A stretch of DNA of 6,935 nucleotides from Candidatus Iainarchaeum sp. (lineage in GTDB: Archaea; Iainarchaeota; Iainarchaeia; Iainarchaeales; CSSED10-239). The notes beneath the pieces are model-generated. The model made no database searches and had not been told where the DNA came from. It saw only the letters and a list, made by a program, of their open reading frames with translations. The stretch is taken from NCBI GenBank assembly GCA_028693335.1, contig JAQUVR010000030.1, positions 1 through 6,935 of the forward strand, written 5' to 3'. Positions within the stretch are counted from its first letter, which is position 1. Every line of letters starts with the position of its first letter. Below, piece by piece: positions 1 to 6,865 of the stretch. The translations under genes and the position numbers were made by a program.

Positions 1-177
1 CAAATTTGCTTGTGTGATCTTGAAACCATAGATCACTATAAAAATTTAAGGCACGATCTTTCTGATTGTAAAAGAATGCATATTGACAAATCTTTTGTGA
101 TGTTGTTTAAAGTAAATAAAAAAAGCAAAGAAATTATTTTTTATAAAATAAGTCATCATGATTTTGCATACAAGTGA
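1..177 (+). CDS. 3' fragment (58 codons plus stop) of a RelE/YafQ-type type II toxin (mRNA interferase); the 5' end lies outside the window
   Basis: Not in the supplied ORF track because it runs off the left edge. Frame 1 reads QICLCDLETIDHYKNLRHDLSDCKRMHIDKSFVMLFKVNKKSKEIIFYKISHHDFAYK, with stop TGA at 175-177. The pattern DH..L...L...R..HI..(hydrophobic strand)K......I.F..I..H....Y matches the C-terminal sheet and catalytic His/Arg region of RelE/ParE-superfamily toxins. From memory it is closest to YafQ (DHPLQGSWKGYRDAHVEPDWILIYKLTDKLLRFERTGTHAALF). Confidence 0.5.
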   Translation, partial: QICLCDLETIDHYKNLRHDLSDCKRMHIDKSFVMLFKVNKKSKEIIFYKISHHDFAYK

Positions 178-183
178 ATAAAA

Positions 184-855
184 ATGTCTGAAAAAATAAC
201 CATAATTTGCGATCTAAGAGAAAGAGCTTCTCAAGTAATGTCTGAATTATTAAAATTAAGTACAGATAAAATAACTATAGAAATTTTACAAGAACAACTA
301 TCAGTTGGAGATTATCAAATAACTGATGATATTGTTATTGAAAGAAAAACGCTTGCAGATCTTAATGCCTCAATAATAGATGGTAGAATATTTGATCAAT
401 TAGAAGATCTATTAAATATAAAGAGATCTGCATTGATTATTGAAGGAACTATTGATTATCTTGATAATTCTAAAGGGATAAACAAAAAAGCAATTGTTGG
501 TTTATTAACCAAAATTGGTATAGAATACAGAATCCCTATCTTCTTTACAAAAAATCAAAAAGAAACCGCATTATTCTTATATGTAATTGCAAAAAAGGAA
601 CAACTTGGAAATGGCAATAAAGAAAACAGATTAAGATTTAGTAAAACTAAAATGTCTTTTTCAGAAAGACAATTGTTTATTATGGAGTCATTTCCAGATA
701 TTGGCCCAACAGTTGCAAAATCATTATTATTAGAATTTAAGAGTATAAAAAACATAGCAAATGCAGAAATAAAAGATTTGCAAAAAGTTTCAAAAATGGG
801 CCCAAAAAAAGCAGAGAAAATAAAATATCTTTTTGAAAGGTCTTTTTGTGATTAA
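184..855 (+). CDS. xpf: Short-form XPF/ERCC4-family structure-specific endonuclease (nuclease domain plus tandem helix-hairpin-helix, no helicase domain)
   Basis: 223-aa ORF with a complete ERCC4 signature: IICDLRE near the N-terminus, VGDYQI (GDY at nt 307-315) and IVIERKTLADLNASIIDGRIFDQ (ERK at nt 340-348). The C-terminal (HhH)2 is FPDIGPTVAKSLLLEF followed by VSKMGPKKAEKI. An SD-like AGTGA (173-177) sits 6 nt before the ATG. Confidence 0.85.
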   Translation: MSEKITIICDLRERASQVMSELLKLSTDKITIEILQEQLSVGDYQITDDIVIERKTLADLNASIIDGRIFDQLEDLLNIKRSALIIEGTIDYLDNSKGINKKAIVGLLTKIGIEYRIPIFFTKNQKETALFLYVIAKKEQLGNGNKENRLRFSKTKMSFSERQLFIMESFPDIGPTVAKSLLLEFKSIKNIANAEIKDLQKVSKMGPKKAEKIKYLFERSFCD

Positions 856-857
856 TT

Positions 858-1379
858 TTATTTAATAGATCTTTGACTCATTTTTTCAATAATTTCTGAT
901 ATTTCTGATTGTGATTTTAAATTGTATTTTTTAATAATTTCTTTTTTATTAAAGCTTTTAGATGTTATTTTTTTTTCAATGAAATTCTTAAATAAAAAAT
1001 AATTTGTTTCTTTTTCTGATATTTTTTTCTTAGAAATAAAGCAAATGAAATGATCTTTGTCATAAACTAATTTTTCTAATTTACTTAATTGATCTGTACA
1101 ATTAATGGTTAATAACATTTCTTTATTAAGATCATTTGATACATTTAATTTATCCGAAATTCTGTGTTTTGTAATAAAAATCGCCCAGTTTAGATGATCT
1201 GTACTATATACCAAAGATTGAGGGATTATTGCAATTTCTAGATTTTTGAGCTTTTTTTGTACTTTTATCTCTTCAATCCTTTTTAAATAATTTTCTATAG
1301 TAATATTAGTTATAGATCCATAGATATATTTAATATAGATCTTGTTATTCTCTAAATCAAAACAAAAATCATTGTTCAT
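858..1379 (-). CDS. cgi121: Probable KEOPS complex subunit Cgi121-like protein
   Basis: 173-aa ORF, a typical size for the family. The central segment IAIIPQSLVYSTDHLNWAIFITKHRISDKLNVSNDLNKEMLLTINCTDQLSKLEKLV...HFICFI follows the archaeal Cgi121 pattern as I recall it from M. jannaschii (ILNADVVATKKHVLHAINQA...IAKSFWMEILVRASGQRQIHEAIK...NVCLI). This is a remembered pattern match, not a computed alignment. The gene converges on xpf with only 2 nt between the stop codons. Confidence 0.45.
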   Translation of the reverse strand: MNNDFCFDLENNKIYIKYIYGSITNITIENYLKRIEEIKVQKKLKNLEIAIIPQSLVYSTDHLNWAIFITKHRISDKLNVSNDLNKEMLLTINCTDQLSKLEKLVYDKDHFICFISKKKISEKETNYFLFKNFIEKKITSKSFNKKEIIKKYNLKSQSEISEIIEKMSQRSIK

Positions 1380-1448
1380 ATTTGTTTTGTAAGAAAAACA
1401 GTTTTTAAAGTAATTTGTAACATTTAAAATAATGGAGTGACTATTAAA
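1380..1448. promoter_or_regulatory. 69-nt divergent promoter spacer between the cgi121-like gene (minus) and rps8e (plus)
   Basis: An A/T box TTTTTAAA at 1402-1409 lies 22 nt from the minus-strand ATG (A at 1379), which is leaderless geometry for an archaeal TATA box. The same box is about 40 nt from ATG 1449, which would leave a short leader containing the SD-like GGAGTGA (1434-1440). A second A/T box, TTTAAAAT, sits at 1423-1430. Calls rest on position only. Confidence 0.3.
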
Positions 1449-1844
1449 ATGGTAGAATGGAAAAAAACATCAAGAAGAAAGCCAAGTGGCGGAATCAATA
1501 ACGCAGTTAATGCAAAGACAAAGACATTAAGTGAAAAAGGTGGTTCTTTTTCAAAGACAATAATTGCAAAAGAAGATAAGAGATATAAGAGTAGAACTGT
1601 TGGTGGATCAGAAAAACAAAAAGTATCACACGTAGCAAGTGTTTTAGTATCTCAAGGAAATAAAACTAAGTCTTTAAAGTTAATAGATGTGGTTGAAAAT
1701 AAAGCAAATAAACACTATGTAAGACAAAAAGTTTTGACTAAAGGGGCAATTGTTAAAGCAACAATGGACGGTAAGGAAGTTAAAGTAAAAATCACCTCCA
1801 GACCAGGACAATCAGGTCAAATCAATGGAATTGTTGTTGAATAG
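1449..1844 (+). CDS. rps8e: 30S ribosomal protein S8e (eS8)
   Basis: MVEWKKTSRRKPSGG at the N-terminus and VVENKANKHYVRQKVLTKGAIV...KITSRPGQSGQINGIVV at the C-terminus are the hallmark archaeal S8e motifs. I prefer ATG 1449 over the ORF-track GTG 1437, because GGAGTGA (1434-1440) is then a correctly spaced SD and MxxWxG/K is the usual S8e N-terminus. Stop is TAG at 1842-1844. Confidence 0.93.
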   Translation: MVEWKKTSRRKPSGGINNAVNAKTKTLSEKGGSFSKTIIAKEDKRYKSRTVGGSEKQKVSHVASVLVSQGNKTKSLKLIDVVENKANKHYVRQKVLTKGAIVKATMDGKEVKVKITSRPGQSGQINGIVVE

Positions 1845-1918
1845 TTCTTATGTGATCAATCATAAAAAAAACCAAATCACAAAATATTTTTAAAAAAATA
1901 AAAAGTGATCTTGGCAAA

Positions 1919-1950
1919 AAAAAAGAAAGACAAAAAGCGCTTTCTTTTTT
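1919..1950 (+). terminator. Perfect 11-bp A/T-rich inverted repeat ending in a T6 tract; possible rps8e terminator or regulatory hairpin
   Basis: AAAAAAGAAAG (1919-1929) and CTTTCTTTTTT (1940-1950) are exact reverse complements separated by a 10-nt loop (ACAAAAAGCG). More T-runs follow at 1956-1960 and 1967-1974. Only 2 G:C pairs, so the stem is weak. The region is alternatively the coding N-terminus of the next gene (see findings). Confidence 0.3.
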
Positions 1951-1984
1951 AATTCTTTTTTTAGTATTTTTTTTAATAATTTAT

Positions 1985-2434
1985 TTGTTGTTAACAAAGA
2001 CTTTTTTGTATAAACAAATAAACATTTTTTTTGCAGTTACTAGTAGTTTTTTTTTGAGACTTGTTTTTGGAATAAACAACCATTTTATTTATGATTCTTT
2101 TCTTAAAAGTTCAACAATAATCATTTCAAATTTAGAATACCCGTTAATAATAAACAAATTGTGCACAGGTATATTAGAATTTAGTTTGTTGTCTGCTGCA
2201 GTTATTGCATCAAAAGGAATATCTATTTTAAAAAGAATTATTGGTTTTTTGATTTCTATATTGGTGGTTATTGTTTTTAATATTTTTAGAATATCATTTA
2301 CTGGTTACTTAATAATAAACTTAAATTTATTTTGGGCAGAAATATTTCATGGAATATTATTTAGATTATTTTTAGTTATTATTGTAATTGGCACCTATTA
2401 CCTTTGGTTAAAAAAAAACATGCTGTGTGATTAA
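1985..2434 (+). CDS. Miniature archaeosortase/exosortase-family integral membrane protein (putative transpeptidase); 5' end uncertain
   Basis: 149-aa polytopic hydrophobic ORF. It carries the three family signature residues in typical contexts: LIINKLCTGILEF (Cys60, nt 2162-2164), VVIVFNIFRISFTG (Arg102, nt 2288-2290) and AEIFHGILFRLF (His122, nt 2348-2350). The only canonical in-frame start is TTG 1985, and the frame stays open upstream to 1856. Confidence 0.6.
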   Translation: MLLTKTFLYKQINIFFAVTSSFFLRLVFGINNHFIYDSFLKSSTIIISNLEYPLIINKLCTGILEFSLLSAAVIASKGISILKRIIGFLISILVVIVFNIFRISFTGYLIINLNLFWAEIFHGILFRLFLVIIVIGTYYLWLKKNMLCD

Positions 2435-2436
2435 TT

Positions 2437-3267
2437 ATGCCAACAAAAAGACCATCAAAAAATCCAATAACCTTTATTGGTGAAAAAAACAGAATTGTTT
2501 TTACTGATTTAATTCCAACACTTAGAAAAATCCAAAGACAAAAATATGCCATTTTAATTGAGCAAGAAAAAGAAAGATCAAAAGCAGTTACTCAAAAAGT
2601 AAAAGATTTACAAAGAGAAATGGAAAGAAGGTTTTTTACAACAGACCCAAAAACAAAAGCAAGAAAACCATTTAAATTTTCTGATCTCTCTCCAAAAATG
2701 CAAAGAAACCTAGAAAGATTTTTATTTAGAAAAATAAAACAACTGGATCTTTCAACATTTTCAATAAAGCAAAAAGAAGAACTACTGGCAGATGTTAGAA
2801 GATTATTATTTGATATAAAAGCCAAAAAAAATAGAAAACAATTACTCTTGAAAAGCACAGCAAAACAACAACTTTTAGAAGATGTTATGCCTGATTTTAA
2901 TAAATTAAAAGAAAAAGATAAGCGAACAATTAATACCATAATAAACTATAACTTATCACTTTTAACCACAAACACATATATTACAAGTAATGAATATAAT
3001 ATGTTAAGAGAAAAAGTTGTTTTAGAAATTAGAAGGATAAATACCAATTATGTTGTTATAGAAGAAATAAAAAACGAGTTGTTATCAGATCCAACAACAA
3101 AACGAAAATTTGCAGAAATGAGCGAAATAGAAAAACGTAAGAAACTAAAACAACTAGATCAAATAATTCGTTCAAATCCAAGATATGCAACACCCAGTGG
3201 AAGATCTCAAATTGAGCGAACTTTTGCAAGAATTATGGTTGGTGCTAATGTAAAAAAGAATAAATAA
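2437..3267 (+). CDS. Hypothetical Lys/Arg-rich, predicted helical/coiled-coil cytoplasmic protein (orphan)
   Basis: 276-aa ORF whose ATG is 2 nt after the archaeosortase-like stop. SD-like GTGAT (2427-2431) sits 5 nt upstream, inside the 3' end of the preceding gene, so translational coupling is likely. No signal peptide or TM segment, and I recognise no family motif. Confidence 0.65.
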   Translation: MPTKRPSKNPITFIGEKNRIVFTDLIPTLRKIQRQKYAILIEQEKERSKAVTQKVKDLQREMERRFFTTDPKTKARKPFKFSDLSPKMQRNLERFLFRKIKQLDLSTFSIKQKEELLADVRRLLFDIKAKKNRKQLLLKSTAKQQLLEDVMPDFNKLKEKDKRTINTIINYNLSLLTTNTYITSNEYNMLREKVVLEIRRINTNYVVIEEIKNELLSDPTTKRKFAEMSEIEKRKKLKQLDQIIRSNPRYATPSGRSQIERTFARIMVGANVKKNK

Positions 3268-3269
3268 TC

Positions 3270-3653
3270 TTATTTTTCTTCTTTTATTAATTTTTTTACT
3301 TGTTCAACTGTTGTATATTCTAATGGATTAATATTATCTATAATGTACTTCATTTCCTTTAATTCATCAGACTTTGCATATCTTTTAGAAAAAAGTTCTA
3401 ATGTTGCTTCAATATTTTTTACTTTTTGTTCCATATTTTTTAATTTATCTAAAATTTCATTAATTTGTTCATTATTAATTGTAGATCCACTATTACTTGC
3501 ACCATTAACACTAGCAATCTTTTTATTTAATATAAGTATATTTCTACCAAGAATTTTTTCATTATGAACAAGATACTTAATTTTTTGTGAAAGTACAAGT
3601 ATACTTGATTGAAGGGCCTTAATATCTTGTGAGCTTCCTTGATCGTCTGCCAT
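3270..3653 (-). CDS. Hypothetical small coiled-coil protein (helix, Gly/Ser/Asn linker, helix)
   Basis: 127-aa ORF with an acidic N-terminus (MADDQGSSQD) and heptad-like segments on either side of ASVNGASNSGSTINN. No TM or signal peptide. I considered prefoldin beta but the beta-hairpin pattern is absent. Its stop is 2 nt from the stop of the convergent 276-aa gene. Confidence 0.6.
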   Translation of the reverse strand: MADDQGSSQDIKALQSSILVLSQKIKYLVHNEKILGRNILILNKKIASVNGASNSGSTINNEQINEILDKLKNMEQKVKNIEATLELFSKRYAKSDELKEMKYIIDNINPLEYTTVEQVKKLIKEEK

Positions 3654-3883
3654 TTTTTTTCAAATTTTTAAATTGTTTTATAAAAGTGTTCTAATATAAA
3701 ATATATTTGAAAAGTTTATAATAGAATCCTTTTTTTGTAAAAATAGAAATTAACAATCTTTTTAAAGGGTTTGTTTCAAATATATTTATTAATTATACAA
3801 AGTTAATTACAAAAGGATTGTTTAATAACCAAACAGACATTTACCTCATTTTTTTAAAAATAAATTAAAAAAGGAAAAAATTT
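3654..3883. promoter_or_regulatory. 230-nt divergent intergenic/promoter region, the longest non-coding stretch in the window
   Basis: Palindromic TTTTATAAAA at 3676-3685 lies 22 nt upstream of the minus-strand ATG (A at 3653), which is leaderless TATA geometry. An A/T box at about 3851-3870 and a weak SD AGGA (3872-3875, 8 nt spacer) precede ATG 3884. No GC-rich segment suggests a structured RNA. Confidence 0.3.
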
Positions 3884-3955
3884 ATGAACAAAAGAAATAT
3901 GTTTTTGGCAATAATAGCATTGATATTTATATCTATTTTAAATCCAATTAATGCT
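3884..3955 (+). other. Sec-type signal peptide of the surface protein
   Basis: MNKRNMFLAIIALIFISILNPINA / LNF has a basic n-region (KR), a 13-residue hydrophobic core and a small-residue c-region (I-N-A). The cleavage site is estimated by eye. Confidence 0.7.
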
Positions 3956-6865
3956 TTAAATTTTAATATAGACTCATTAGTCATAAGCACAGAATCAGAA
4001 AACACTTATGCATCATTACAATATGGAAACTATTATGATAATGTTTCATTAAGGTTAGGCTTTAGAGCATCAGATTTAACATATGGGCAAAACATACCAG
4101 TAGTGATTACTCCAAAGATTTATGGAATCTCAGATAATGGCCAAATGCAATATCTTTATTCAGCACCACCAGTATACTATACTTTGTATAATACATCTAC
4201 TCAAGAATATTATTATCCAAACATATTCTATTTACAACCACCATATACTGGTTATCAAGTACTAATTGATGCACAAACATTAGTTCCTGCAAATATTTAT
4301 TATGGAGTAAATAATGCTTATGTTTATGTTTCTGGATATCCAACATATTATTATCCAGCAGAGCCAAATGATCCAGATCCAAGTGATCCACAATACCCAG
4401 AAAATGATTGTTTTAATATGAGTTTATCTGGTCAAGGTTCTTTTTATATAAATGAAGATCAAGAAAAGGAATATAGGTTGTATATTGCAAACAACTCTAG
4501 TTTACCATTAACAATTCAATCAGTAACAACAACAAACCCATCAAGATTAGATATAGATGATATTTCTTATCCGCACACAATTTCTGCAAATCAAACAAGA
4601 TATGCTCAAATAGATTTGATTGCTGATTTAGTAAGTAGTAATTATTCTTCATTTTTTGATATTATTGTAAAAGGAAATTATCCTGATGGAACAGTATGTC
4701 AAAAAGCATTTACTGTTGACTATACAATAAATGATAGAAGTTCAAATAATTCAGGAGATTGTTCTGATCTTATCTTAAATGATTTTGAATTTACATTAAA
4801 TGAATTTCAAAATCTTACTCAAGAAATAAGAATTAAGAATGAATCATTAGATTACGAATATGTAATAGATTCAGTAAATATTTATGATGATAGTTATGTT
4901 TCAACAAATGTAATTGATTACCCAAGAAGAATCTATACTAATCAAGCAGACTATTTAAAAATAAAATTTGAAGCAGAAGATATAACAAGAGATCTTACAA
5001 GAAACCTAGATTTAAGAGTAAATGGATATTTGAGAAGATCAGGAAGAGAAGATAAAAGATGTAATATTAGATCAAATATAAAAATAAATTTAATTGATCA
5101 AGGAAGTGTAAACTATTCTCCTGCAACAAGCTGTAGCAACATAAAAATATTTGCACCAAATATTTCACAATTAGAAAACACATTATCAAATTATGGAAAA
5201 GACAATGGTTTTTTTATAGTTAATAATTCTAATCAAAAATTTACAATAAGTTATCTTTTAGTAAACGATAACACTAGTTATGCTGATTTAAAAGTAAATA
5301 ATTATAGTTCAATGATATATCCATCAGCAACATTACCAATAAACTTTGAATTAACAACAACAGAAGTAGCAACAACTCAAAGCACAAATGCAAAAGTTGA
5401 GGTTAGTGGAAGGTTTGATGATGGAACTGTTTGTAATTATTCAAATATTAATAAAACCTTTACAATAAACATTCTAGATTCACAAGACAATTATTGTGGA
5501 TCTGTTGGAGTTTTATCTCAAAGGGTTAATGAAGGAAGATCTGATGTTGTTTTGTTTAATAATACTAATAAAAAATTCTATGTAACCAATATATTATTTC
5601 AAGAAAAATATAAACTAGATGCAAGAGTTGATACTTCTCAACACACAATCTCAAAAAACAGTTCATTATCAATTCCAGTTAGTTTTACAGGAGATGGTTC
5701 CTTACAAATGATTGTTTCAGGGAAATTTGAGGATGGCAAAGCATGTAATTATACTCAAACAACACCTGGTATTTTAAGTGTTAGTGGAAATATAAATAAT
5801 TCAACCTATAATTTTTCAGAAAATAATTGTTCATTAGATCTTACAATTCCAAATATTTATGAAATTGATGATGCTATAGAAAAATATGTTTTAACTGTAA
5901 AAAACTATAGTAAAAATTCAGGAAAAATAGTAATCTATAGTAATGGAGCAACCATTAACCCTGCAATTATTTATTTAGACGGTTATGATAATTTTAATCA
6001 AGAACTAACATTGTCAAACTTTAGTAATCCAACAGCAGTAAACTATTCTGTACAATTAAATAACTGTAATGCTTTTTTAAGAAATACAACACTTGCAAAT
6101 AAATTAATTACAGAAAACAGAATAGAACTAGTATCTTATCCACAAAAATACACACCAGTAAATTCTATGATCGCATTTAGTGTTTTATTAAAAAATGATT
6201 TTTCAGAAAATAAAAATCTATTAATAAAATTAGGTGGCTTTCCTAACAATTGGCAAACAGATTCAAAAAATATAACTGTTAGTTCCAGAAGTACAGAAAG
6301 TATAACCTTAACCGGAACAATACCACAAGATGTTATTGGTGTTTATGATGGGCATATAGAAGTTTATGAAAATAATTTGTTAATCGAAAGTAAGCCAATT
6401 ACAATTGATCTAACCATAAAAGATGCCGATCTTTCTGTTGATAATAAAAAAATAGATTCTATAAGTAAATCAAATGGATATCAATTAAAATTTGATTTGA
6501 CAAACAATACAGAATTTAGAAAAGATGTTATAATTAGTTTTGATCTTGATAATTCTTGGGTAATTGATGGAGAAAAAAATATTGAACTATTACCAAAAGA
6601 AAAAAAAGAAATTATATTTAAGTTAATGCCAACAACAAAAAAAGAAGATCAAAGTTTTAGACTGATCTTTAAAGAAAAAGGTACTGATAAAATTTTATTA
6701 GAAGAAAATATTTTATTAGAACAAAAGAAAGATACCTTTGGCCTTACTGGTTTTTTAACTTTGGGGCTTAATAGTTGGATTGGTTTTTTAGTTTTAATAA
6801 TTATTGTTATTATAGTAATTATTTATATTTTAAAAAAAAAGAAAAAGAAAAAAATATTTATTTAA
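3884..6865 (+). CDS. Large secreted, heavily sequon-decorated multi-domain cell-surface protein (S-layer/adhesin-like) with a C-terminal tripartite anchor or sorting signal
   Basis: Uninterrupted 993-aa ORF with an N-terminal signal peptide and beta-strand-like alternating hydrophobic patterns throughout. I hand-counted 30 N-x-S/T sequons (x not Pro). There are 10 Cys residues, all in regular pairs, and a C-terminal TM helix plus K7 tail. Confidence 0.9.
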   Translation: MNKRNMFLAIIALIFISILNPINALNFNIDSLVISTESENTYASLQYGNYYDNVSLRLGFRASDLTYGQNIPVVITPKIYGISDNGQMQYLYSAPPVYYTLYNTSTQEYYYPNIFYLQPPYTGYQVLIDAQTLVPANIYYGVNNAYVYVSGYPTYYYPAEPNDPDPSDPQYPENDCFNMSLSGQGSFYINEDQEKEYRLYIANNSSLPLTIQSVTTTNPSRLDIDDISYPHTISANQTRYAQIDLIADLVSSNYSSFFDIIVKGNYPDGTVCQKAFTVDYTINDRSSNNSGDCSDLILNDFEFTLNEFQNLTQEIRIKNESLDYEYVIDSVNIYDDSYVSTNVIDYPRRIYTNQADYLKIKFEAEDITRDLTRNLDLRVNGYLRRSGREDKRCNIRSNIKINLIDQGSVNYSPATSCSNIKIFAPNISQLENTLSNYGKDNGFFIVNNSNQKFTISYLLVNDNTSYADLKVNNYSSMIYPSATLPINFELTTTEVATTQSTNAKVEVSGRFDDGTVCNYSNINKTFTINILDSQDNYCGSVGVLSQRVNEGRSDVVLFNNTNKKFYVTNILFQEKYKLDARVDTSQHTISKNSSLSIPVSFTGDGSLQMIVSGKFEDGKACNYTQTTPGILSVSGNINNSTYNFSENNCSLDLTIPNIYEIDDAIEKYVLTVKNYSKNSGKIVIYSNGATINPAIIYLDGYDNFNQELTLSNFSNPTAVNYSVQLNNCNAFLRNTTLANKLITENRIELVSYPQKYTPVNSMIAFSVLLKNDFSENKNLLIKLGGFPNNWQTDSKNITVSSRSTESITLTGTIPQDVIGVYDGHIEVYENNLLIESKPITIDLTIKDADLSVDNKKIDSISKSNGYQLKFDLTNNTEFRKDVIISFDLDNSWVIDGEKNIELLPKEKKEIIFKLMPTTKKEDQSFRLIFKEKGTDKILLEENILLEQKKDTFGLTGFLTLGLNSWIGFLVLIIIVIIVIIYILKKKKKKKIFI
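4151..4408 (+). other. Tyr/Pro-rich low-complexity segment ending in an acidic Pro-Asp linker
   Basis: Residues 90-171 contain 20 Tyr in 82 residues (YYY at 109-111 and 155-157), and residues 90-175 contain 13 Pro. The segment ends PAEPNDPDPSDPQYPEND immediately before the first Cys-bracketed module. Confidence 0.8.
4409..6067 (+). repeat. Five tandem, highly diverged protein modules of about 111-124 aa, each bracketed by one Cys pair (predicted disulfide-stapled Ig-like beta-sandwiches)
   Basis: Cys residues sit at 176/272, 293/393, 417/517, 538/621 and 649/728, with TGT codons at nt 4409, 4697, 4760, 5060, 5132, 5432, 5495, 5744, 5828 and 6065. In modules 1, 3 and 4 the second Cys lies in a recurring motif: KGNYPDGTVC, SGRFDDGTVC, SGKFEDGKAC. 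Each module has a core of the type x-I/V-x-N-x-S-x-x-x-hydrophobic-x-I. The repeat is visible at protein level only; there is no DNA-level repeat. Confidence 0.7.
6107..6724 (+). other. Two Cys-free CARDB/NEW3-like beta-sandwich domains
   Basis: LIKLGGFPNNWQTDSKNITVSSRSTESITLTGTIPQDVIGVYDGHIEVY and ISFDLDNSWVIDGEKNIELLPKEKKEIIFKLMPTTKKEDQSFRLIF both follow the pattern P/D-x-x-W-...-I-x-L-x-P/S-x-x-x-x-I-x-L/F-x-x-x-P. That pattern is typical of CARDB/NPCBM-associated NEW3-type domains in archaeal surface proteins. Pattern-level call only. Confidence 0.4.
6740..6862 (+). other. C-terminal tripartite element: GLTGF motif, about 26-residue TM helix, K7 basic cluster (candidate archaeosortase recognition signal)
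   Basis: The C-terminus reads DTF-GLTGF-LTLGLNSWIGFLVLIIIVIIVIIYIL-KKKKKKK-IFI-stop. Its layout matches PGF-CTERM/PEP-CTERM-type signals: short signature motif, hydrophobic helix, then a basic tail at the extreme C-terminus. The signature is TGF rather than PGF. Confidence 0.5.

Follow-up and report, generated by a model that had tools for sequence, protein, structure and literature searches.

A short open reading frame at positions 1985-2434 of a 6,935-nucleotide stretch of archaeal DNA from Candidatus Iainarchaeum sp. (contig JAQUVR010000030.1 of assembly GCA_028693335.1, G+C about 25%; the whole stretch is called the window here) was taken in a preliminary description for a half-size member of the exosortase/archaeosortase family. 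This raises the questions of whether the encoded protein belongs to that superfamily, where its gene really begins, and which protein it might process. Members of the superfamily carry a nearly invariant cysteine, arginine and histidine on consecutive membrane helices (Haft 2023 preprint). Translation of the reading frame places these residues where they had been described, at Cys60 (within LIINKLCTGILEF), Arg102 (in VFNIFRISF) and His122 (in AEIFHGILF), and the distance of about 40 residues reported between cysteine and arginine measures 42 (Table 1). The cysteine lies in an LCTG context, the arginine in FNxxRI and the histidine in HxxLFR. All three are invariant (16/16) in an alignment of close homologues (A1; n = 15, 44-95% identity), as are Asn142, Glu108, Thr104 and Gly105, in a numbering that starts at position 1856 and is used below for the longer protein. 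The pattern extends to an alignment of 120 relatives at 21-50% identity (A3), in which the cysteine is present in 119 sequences and the arginine, the histidine and Asn142 in all 120, and in which Arg170 is arginine in 107/120 and lysine in 12/120.

Profile searches assign the protein to the same superfamily. The NCBIfam signature TIGR04178 ('exo_archaeo'; cutoff 23 bits) is matched at 41.0 bits (E 1.7e-10), residues 55-142 of the 149-residue product aligning with positions 2-92 of the 97 in the profile; a 192-residue version of the protein scores 40.1 bits, and 118 of the 120 relatives also match. The second profile proposed as a check, Pfam PF09721 (Exosortase_EpsH), gave a score narrowly below its gathering value (15.5 bits versus 25.7) and a match that spans profile positions 130-249 of 254 only, because nothing in the protein corresponds to the N-terminal half of this 8-TM model. 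Precomputed Pfam matches on the homologues are graded 'weak'. Among 1.84 billion cluster representatives searched with HMMER, 393 relatives were found at E <= 1e-3, 150 at E <= 1e-10 and only 2 at E <= 1e-30. One relative, P0065 (1102 aa), has the sortase domain at residues 6-182 fused to about 900 further residues. Membership in the exosortase/archaeosortase superfamily is thus borne out by a signature HMM score above cutoff, by the invariant Cys, Arg and His residues, and by the membrane face that these residues share according to the predicted helix order. The reading frame encodes a small polytopic membrane protein of this superfamily, with predicted activity as a cysteine endopeptidase or transpeptidase.

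An AlphaFold2 model of the sortase built from alignment A1 (pLDDT 82, pTM 0.73) contains an amphipathic helix (residues 6-20) and five further helices, at 22-47, 50-69, 103-117, 124-155 and 158-190, with a beta-hairpin loop at 75-99. The cysteine opens the third of these five, Arg145 lies ten residues before the end of helix 124-155, and His165 lies seven residues past the start of helix 158-190. Location of the three residues on opposite sides of the membrane had been named as an observation that would speak against the family assignment; in the model, the helix order instead directs all three to one face, which also carries the hairpin loop and the turn at 156-157. Across the family, lysine and arginine residues number 6-9 in the N-terminal tail, about 3 in the loop at 120-127 and 3-4 in the C-terminal tail, and the loops at 74-101 and 150-160 are neutral or acidic. 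Judged by these loop charges, the catalytic face would be extracytoplasmic, on the assumption that helix 50-69 does not span the membrane. This helix is the least hydrophobic (mean KD 1.0-1.3), and if it did span the membrane the basic N-terminal tail would fall on the catalytic side. An extracytoplasmic active site, as the model suggests, agrees with the description for ArtA. A PDB sequence search and a Foldseek search with the sortase yielded no meaningful match among solved structures.

The claim that the protein is a half-size, minimal catalytic core does not survive comparison with its homologues, which are 180-194 residues long and carry a basic tail and an extra helix. The product in the window is about 190 residues long, its 5' end having been missed, and named subfamilies of similar size are already known. 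Upstream of 1985 the sortase frame remains open as far as a TGA at 1853-1855, and the 43 codons of 1856-1984 align residue for residue with the N-termini of the homologues, encoding a lysine-rich tail and a hydrophobic helix. When 1856-1984 is shuffled by mononucleotide, stop codons are absent from only 0.8% of the results. When the window is compared with loci L005 and L011 of a sister subclade (75-77% protein identity), dN/dS is 0.23-0.29 in the extension, at dS 0.7-0.8, and 0.12-0.13 in the core, and the extension differs by one in-frame 9-nt indel, with no frameshifts and no further stops. The combination of purifying selection, an in-frame indel and the rarity of stop-free shuffles indicates that the extension is translated and that the gene is not a pseudogene. 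On the evidence of these alignments, the reading frame first described appears to be the 3' three-quarters of a gene for an archaeosortase of about 190 residues. The TTG at 1985 is merely the first in-frame TTG, and mechanical calling of open reading frames shortens the gene.

What is unusual about this gene is its start, and in no other respect does it depart from expectation: an N-terminal coding stretch is under selection and has no canonical start codon. The sortase frame of the window contains neither ATG nor GTG nor TTG from 1856 to 1984, and the sole canonical start, the ATG at 1850, is followed at codon 2 by the in-frame TGA. One might therefore suppose that this clade has a defective gene, whether a pseudogene created by a nonsense mutation or by loss of the start, or a source of a truncated, 149-residue product made from TTG 1985 and without the first helix. 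We regard this as very improbable, given that two subclades a dS of about 0.7-1.2 apart have both retained this arrangement, that purifying selection extends over the whole gene, and that the sole indel is in frame; a pseudogene is rejected on the dN/dS values of core and extension alike. The window and loci L001-L005 and L011 all read (A/T)TG TGA TCA xxx ATA AAA AAA at this point, and the ATA at 1862-1864 aligns with the ATG of orthologues, as is seen when L023 (MKKNSLLKNLKKDL) is set beside L005 (IKKQNLFKNIKKDL). Non-canonical initiation at ATA 1862 in the window clade is the start to which these alignments lead us to give somewhat better than even odds, and the simplest history would be mutation of ATG to ATA with weak initiation retained at the ATA. 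Read-through of the UGA from ATG 1850 (TTG in the sister subclade), or reinitiation at the ATA coupled to the ATG-TGA mini-ORF, seems to us improbable, and a start at GTG 1852 combined with slippage on the A8 run may be a further alternative. If read-through or reinitiation did operate, the arrangement would be a programmed start-stop device that throttles a membrane protease in a DPANN archaeon; plain near-cognate initiation at ATA is more likely than such a device.

Public gene calls give the protein an N-terminus of the form 'MWS...' by decoding the TGA as tryptophan, and loci with such calls fail to match the query under table 11 because TGA has been read as Trp. Reassignment of TGA to tryptophan or glycine (code 4 or 25) was considered and rejected: TGA closes the YafQ-like reading frame exactly at the end of the profile (92/92), TGG alone encodes tryptophan in the genes of the window, and in-frame TGA occurs in no other gene. 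The toxin-gene TGA is in frame with the Hef/XPF ATG and lies two codons before it, and a 317-residue public call in L004 (486-1439) apparently fuses the two genes. In these archaeal genomes of 25% GC, code-4 gene callers thus produce spurious 'MW...' N-termini and join adjacent genes. Because it lacks a canonical start yet evolves under purifying selection, the gene is a clean, small system for testing whether DPANN archaea use non-canonical initiation or UGA read-through.

The suggestion that the protein represents a lineage-specific subfamily is upheld, in that its close relatives come solely from metagenome-assembled genomes (MAGs) of Iainarchaeota/Diapherotrites and no model of a named subfamily comes near its cutoff. 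Genome matches are to DPANN MAGs of Iainarchaeota/Diapherotrites or to unclassified archaeal MAGs; the organisms named are Ca. Forterrea multitransposorum (complete genome), Ca. Iainarchaeum and Diapherotrites. The homologues already bear the label 'exosortase/archaeosortase family protein' at NCBI and JGI. Moreover, short sortases are not new, and apart from its start codon the window protein is an ordinary member of a known family. Short NCBIfam subfamilies include ArtD (150 profile positions), XrtS (155), XrtH (158), pacearchaeosortase (167), XrtY (168), XrtG (187) and heimdallarchaeosortase (199). The window protein resembles ArtD, XrtH (TIGR04177), XrtY, XrtG and heimdallarchaeosortase in its comparable length and common conserved core, and its homologues match the short named models weakly (P0007 to XrtH, for example, with 30.8 bits), but all scores lie well under the cutoffs of 86-160 bits. 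It scores 9.7-10.8 bits against the ArtD model (TIGR04175; cutoff 125) and 9.1-14.4 bits against the pacearchaeosortase model (NF033505; cutoff 80), and no match to the ArtA model is listed for it at E values up to 10. A conserved basic N-terminal tail and a location linked to rpS8e set the Iainarchaeota group apart from the other short subfamilies.

Gene order around the sortase is shared among its close relatives (Table 1). Where the flanking sequence is long enough, Hef/XPF stands first, with Cgi121 (minus strand), rpS8e and the sortase after it, and next come variable genes and a gene for about 127-131 residues (minus strand), followed in some loci by a gene for about 120 residues, then by a gene for a protein of 800-1050 residues and, wherever the flank reaches, by the rpL3 operon. 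The sortase is probably co-transcribed with rpS8e. The 276-residue protein encoded 3' of the sortase has no family match; it is 30% identical to an ORF at the same position in L023 (E 7e-28), and other loci have ORFs of different size or minus-strand genes there. The coiled-coil gene occupies the same position in every related locus, and its PspA-like similarity is weak (E 0.0016). The ORF of about 120 residues ahead of the large protein is present in L006, L008 and L009 and missing in the window and L023. The 230-nt gap at 3654-3883 is presumably a divergent promoter region. Scans of the window found no tRNA genes, Rfam matches or terminator-like sites, and promoter-like sites are not commoner in it than in shuffled sequence.

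Table 1. Coordinates of the genes, codons and signal elements in the window (residue numbers of the sortase are given for the 149-aa frame and for the frame counted from position 1856).
Feature	Position	Strand	Remarks
YafQ/RelE-type toxin gene, 3' part	10-177		Profile match; ends in TGA
Short Hef/XPF nuclease	184-855		Family match
Cgi121	858-1379	-	Family match
Ribosomal protein S8e (rpS8e)	1437-1844	+	Directly 5' of the sortase and in the same orientation in every locus
ATG-TGA in frame with the sortase	1850-1855	+	5 nt past the rpS8e stop; 'TTG TGA' in the sister subclade
Archaeosortase, probable full coding region	1862-2434	+	About 190 aa if ATA 1862 is the start; frame open from 1856
Reading frame of the preliminary description	1985-2434	+	First in-frame TTG, TAA stop, 149 aa; carries the conserved catalytic region
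Candidate nucleophile Cys codon	2162-2164	+	Cys60 = Cys103; first residue of helix 103-117
Arg codon	2288-2290	+	Arg102 = Arg145; FNxxRI motif
His codon	2348-2350	+	His122 = His165; HxxLFR motif
Basic 276-aa protein, Lys/Arg-rich	2437-3267		Begins 2 nt past the sortase stop (TAATTATG)
127-aa coiled-coil protein	3270-3653	-	Divergent from the gene of the large surface protein
993-aa secreted multi-domain beta-sandwich protein	3884-6865	+	Candidate substrate; putative S-layer or major surface protein
Signature motif L-T-G-F-L-T-L	6743-6763	+	Residues 954-960 of the 993-aa protein; candidate sorting signal
Hydrophobic helix (965-983) and seven Lys (984-990)	6776-6853	+	Parts two and three of the tripartite signal; protein ends at 993

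The large protein at the 3' end of the window is the candidate substrate that we propose for the sortase. Its gene lies 1.4 kb 3' of the sortase in the window and 0.85-2 kb away across loci, an orthologue occurs at the same position in every locus examined with enough downstream flank, and a reciprocal search that started from homologues of the 993-residue protein led back to the same 184-residue sortase. An AlphaFold2 model of the protein (pLDDT 69) has a signal-like hydrophobic helix at residues 4-18, about eight all-beta (beta-sandwich) domains and a terminal helix at 964-986, the stretch around the C-terminal motif being disordered. N-x-S/T sequons number 30, against 17 expected. Foldseek searches with the model returned generic tandem beta-sandwich proteins only (TM about 0.1-0.15), and none of the 50 matches listed is an S-layer protein.

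The C-terminus of this protein resembles a PGF-CTERM sorting signal. Signals of this tripartite type have been defined by a position near the C-terminus, a motif in which three or more residues are near-invariant, a hydrophobic helix, a basic cluster and an N-terminal signal peptide, and systems with one enzyme and one target have been termed 'dedicated' (Haft). The window protein shows attributes 1 and 3-6 of that definition, namely the motif, the helix, the basic cluster, the C-terminal position and the signal-like helix. In all 23 orthologues a motif of the form [LIM]-[TS]-[GA]-F-[FL]-x-[LF] is followed by about 20 hydrophobic residues and a Lys/Arg cluster, F-[FL] being replaced by L-F in L015; stated more narrowly, [ST][GA][FL][FL] stands just ahead of the hydrophobic segment in 23/23, and a 24th orthologue (L025) has A-G-F-L. 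Across the final 60 columns of the alignment of these proteins (A4), no position is invariant except F957 and L960. The motif starts 29-47 residues from the C-terminus in 16/23 orthologues, and in the other 7/23 a tail of a further 40-70 residues, predicted to be cytoplasmic, follows the basic cluster, an arrangement unusual among sorting signals. No other ORF of at least 80 residues has the tripartite pattern in the window or in 24 loci that together make up about 290 kb. Against curated models, the C-terminus scores 14.5 bits for Heimdall-CTERM (cutoff 24), 11.3 for PEF-CTERM (23) and 8.8 for Loki-CTERM (19.9), all below cutoff, and no match to the PGF-CTERM model is listed.

On the basis of this PGF-CTERM-like tripartite ending, we propose that the small Iainarchaeota archaeosortase forms a dedicated pair with the large surface protein as its substrate, a reading to which we assign a probability of about 60%. 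By analogy with the action of Haloferax volcanii ArtA on the PGF-CTERM S-layer glycoprotein, the large protein would be exported through Sec and stay tethered for a time by its C-terminal helix, and at the outer boundary of the membrane the sortase would recognise the motif that contains GF. The cysteine of the enzyme would then attack the peptide bond, leading to removal of the helix and basic tail, and the new C-terminus would probably be transferred to a membrane lipid. The system would be dedicated in the sense that one enzyme serves one or very few substrates.

By itself, proximity supports this pairing only weakly because the whole block, from Hef/XPF, Cgi121 and rpS8e to the rpL3 operon, is a phylum-wide housekeeping synteny. 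It is conceivable, then, that the sortase is a genuine archaeosortase and that the large protein is not its substrate, being anchored instead by its C-terminal helix and retaining the motif for some other role, such as packing in a lattice or stalk, in which case the proximity of the two genes would reflect nothing beyond this conserved order. SlaB is anchored by its C-terminal helix in just this manner. The long cytoplasmic tails of some orthologues, the failure of the C-terminus to reach any curated sorting-signal model, and the existence of distant relatives of the sortase with no large-protein neighbour are all consistent with such an arrangement. Nevertheless, motif, helix and basic cluster follow one another in the canonical tripartite geometry, the GF core mirrors that of PGF-CTERM, and within a C-terminal region that otherwise varies, no stretch but the motif is invariant. 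In addition, some substrate must exist for a sortase that is conserved, and the loci examined contain no further candidate with the pattern. We therefore consider it unlikely, while allowing it real weight, that the large protein merely sits beside the enzyme.

The distant relatives bring in a different set of possible clients. For small sortases with 27-40% identity (G+C 31-58%), no neighbour with a tripartite CTERM was found in the loci examined. The homologues in L029, L032, L036, L037, L040 and L047 adjoin either two ORFs of about 760-790 residues or one fused ORF of about 1270 residues, with a common N-terminus; the L029 ORFs (2164-7962) match T2SSE (E 5.8e-19) and T2SSF (24.3 bits versus a cutoff of 25.2), and a small ORF nearby has a pilin-like N-terminus (MKMMNSKGQAFSTFQLLISAIIALTILVILLG). 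This distant clade of sortases may be linked to type IV filaments, and it could be argued from these neighbours that the enzyme in the window serves another surface structure, for example in the maturation of components of a type IV pilus or other filament. We find this distinctly improbable. Neither the window nor the Iainarchaeota loci of close relatives (46-95% identity) have pilus genes in the vicinity of the sortase gene, the distant relatives are only 27-40% identical, so that specificities may differ, and the four pilin-like ORFs of L024, which has a more divergent sortase, lie 3' of the large protein. Moreover, archaeal pilins are processed by PibD-type prepilin peptidases and not by sortases. 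The same locus, L024, encodes beside the large surface protein a 498-residue right-handed beta-helix protein (5356-6852) that ends in ...SLLSEFKNSWRAILVVTIFFLFVIFGIVYYFKHKG; it may be a further substrate, whose motif would be a degenerate S-E-F.

Returning to the proposed pair of sortase and large surface protein, its nearest characterized counterpart for comparison is the ArtA system of Haloferax volcanii, in which Cys173 and Arg214, 41 residues apart, are experimentally essential (PMC9263693). The window sortase is like ArtA (HVO_0915) in its TIGR04178 signature, its polytopic membrane character and its Cys-Arg spacing (42 here and 41 in ArtA), and the candidate substrate is like the PGF-CTERM S-layer glycoprotein in being large and secreted, with a tripartite C-terminus in which G-F stands just before the helix. 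The enzyme differs from ArtA in size (about 190 residues rather than about 300) and apparently in having one substrate per locus rather than several, and the motif, [TSA]-[GA]-F-[FL]-x-[LF], differs from P-G-F. Pacearchaeosortase is likewise a small sortase of a DPANN lineage (167-position model), and if its partner is the PACE-CTERM 'putative S-layer protein' (NF033506), which we assume from the names, that system would come closest to the present one in both logic and size. It belongs to a different phylum, however, and the C-terminus of our candidate substrate scores 11.2 bits against the PACE-CTERM cutoff of 110. The literature searched contained no description of DPANN or Iainarchaeota archaeosortases or of 'pacearchaeosortase'.

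To our knowledge, Iainarchaeota have no cultured members. If the pairing proposed here is correct, these archaea would anchor their main surface protein by sortase-mediated removal of a C-terminal helix, probably with attachment to lipid, and a signal of the [TS]-G-F type would be added to the catalogue of archaeal sorting signals.
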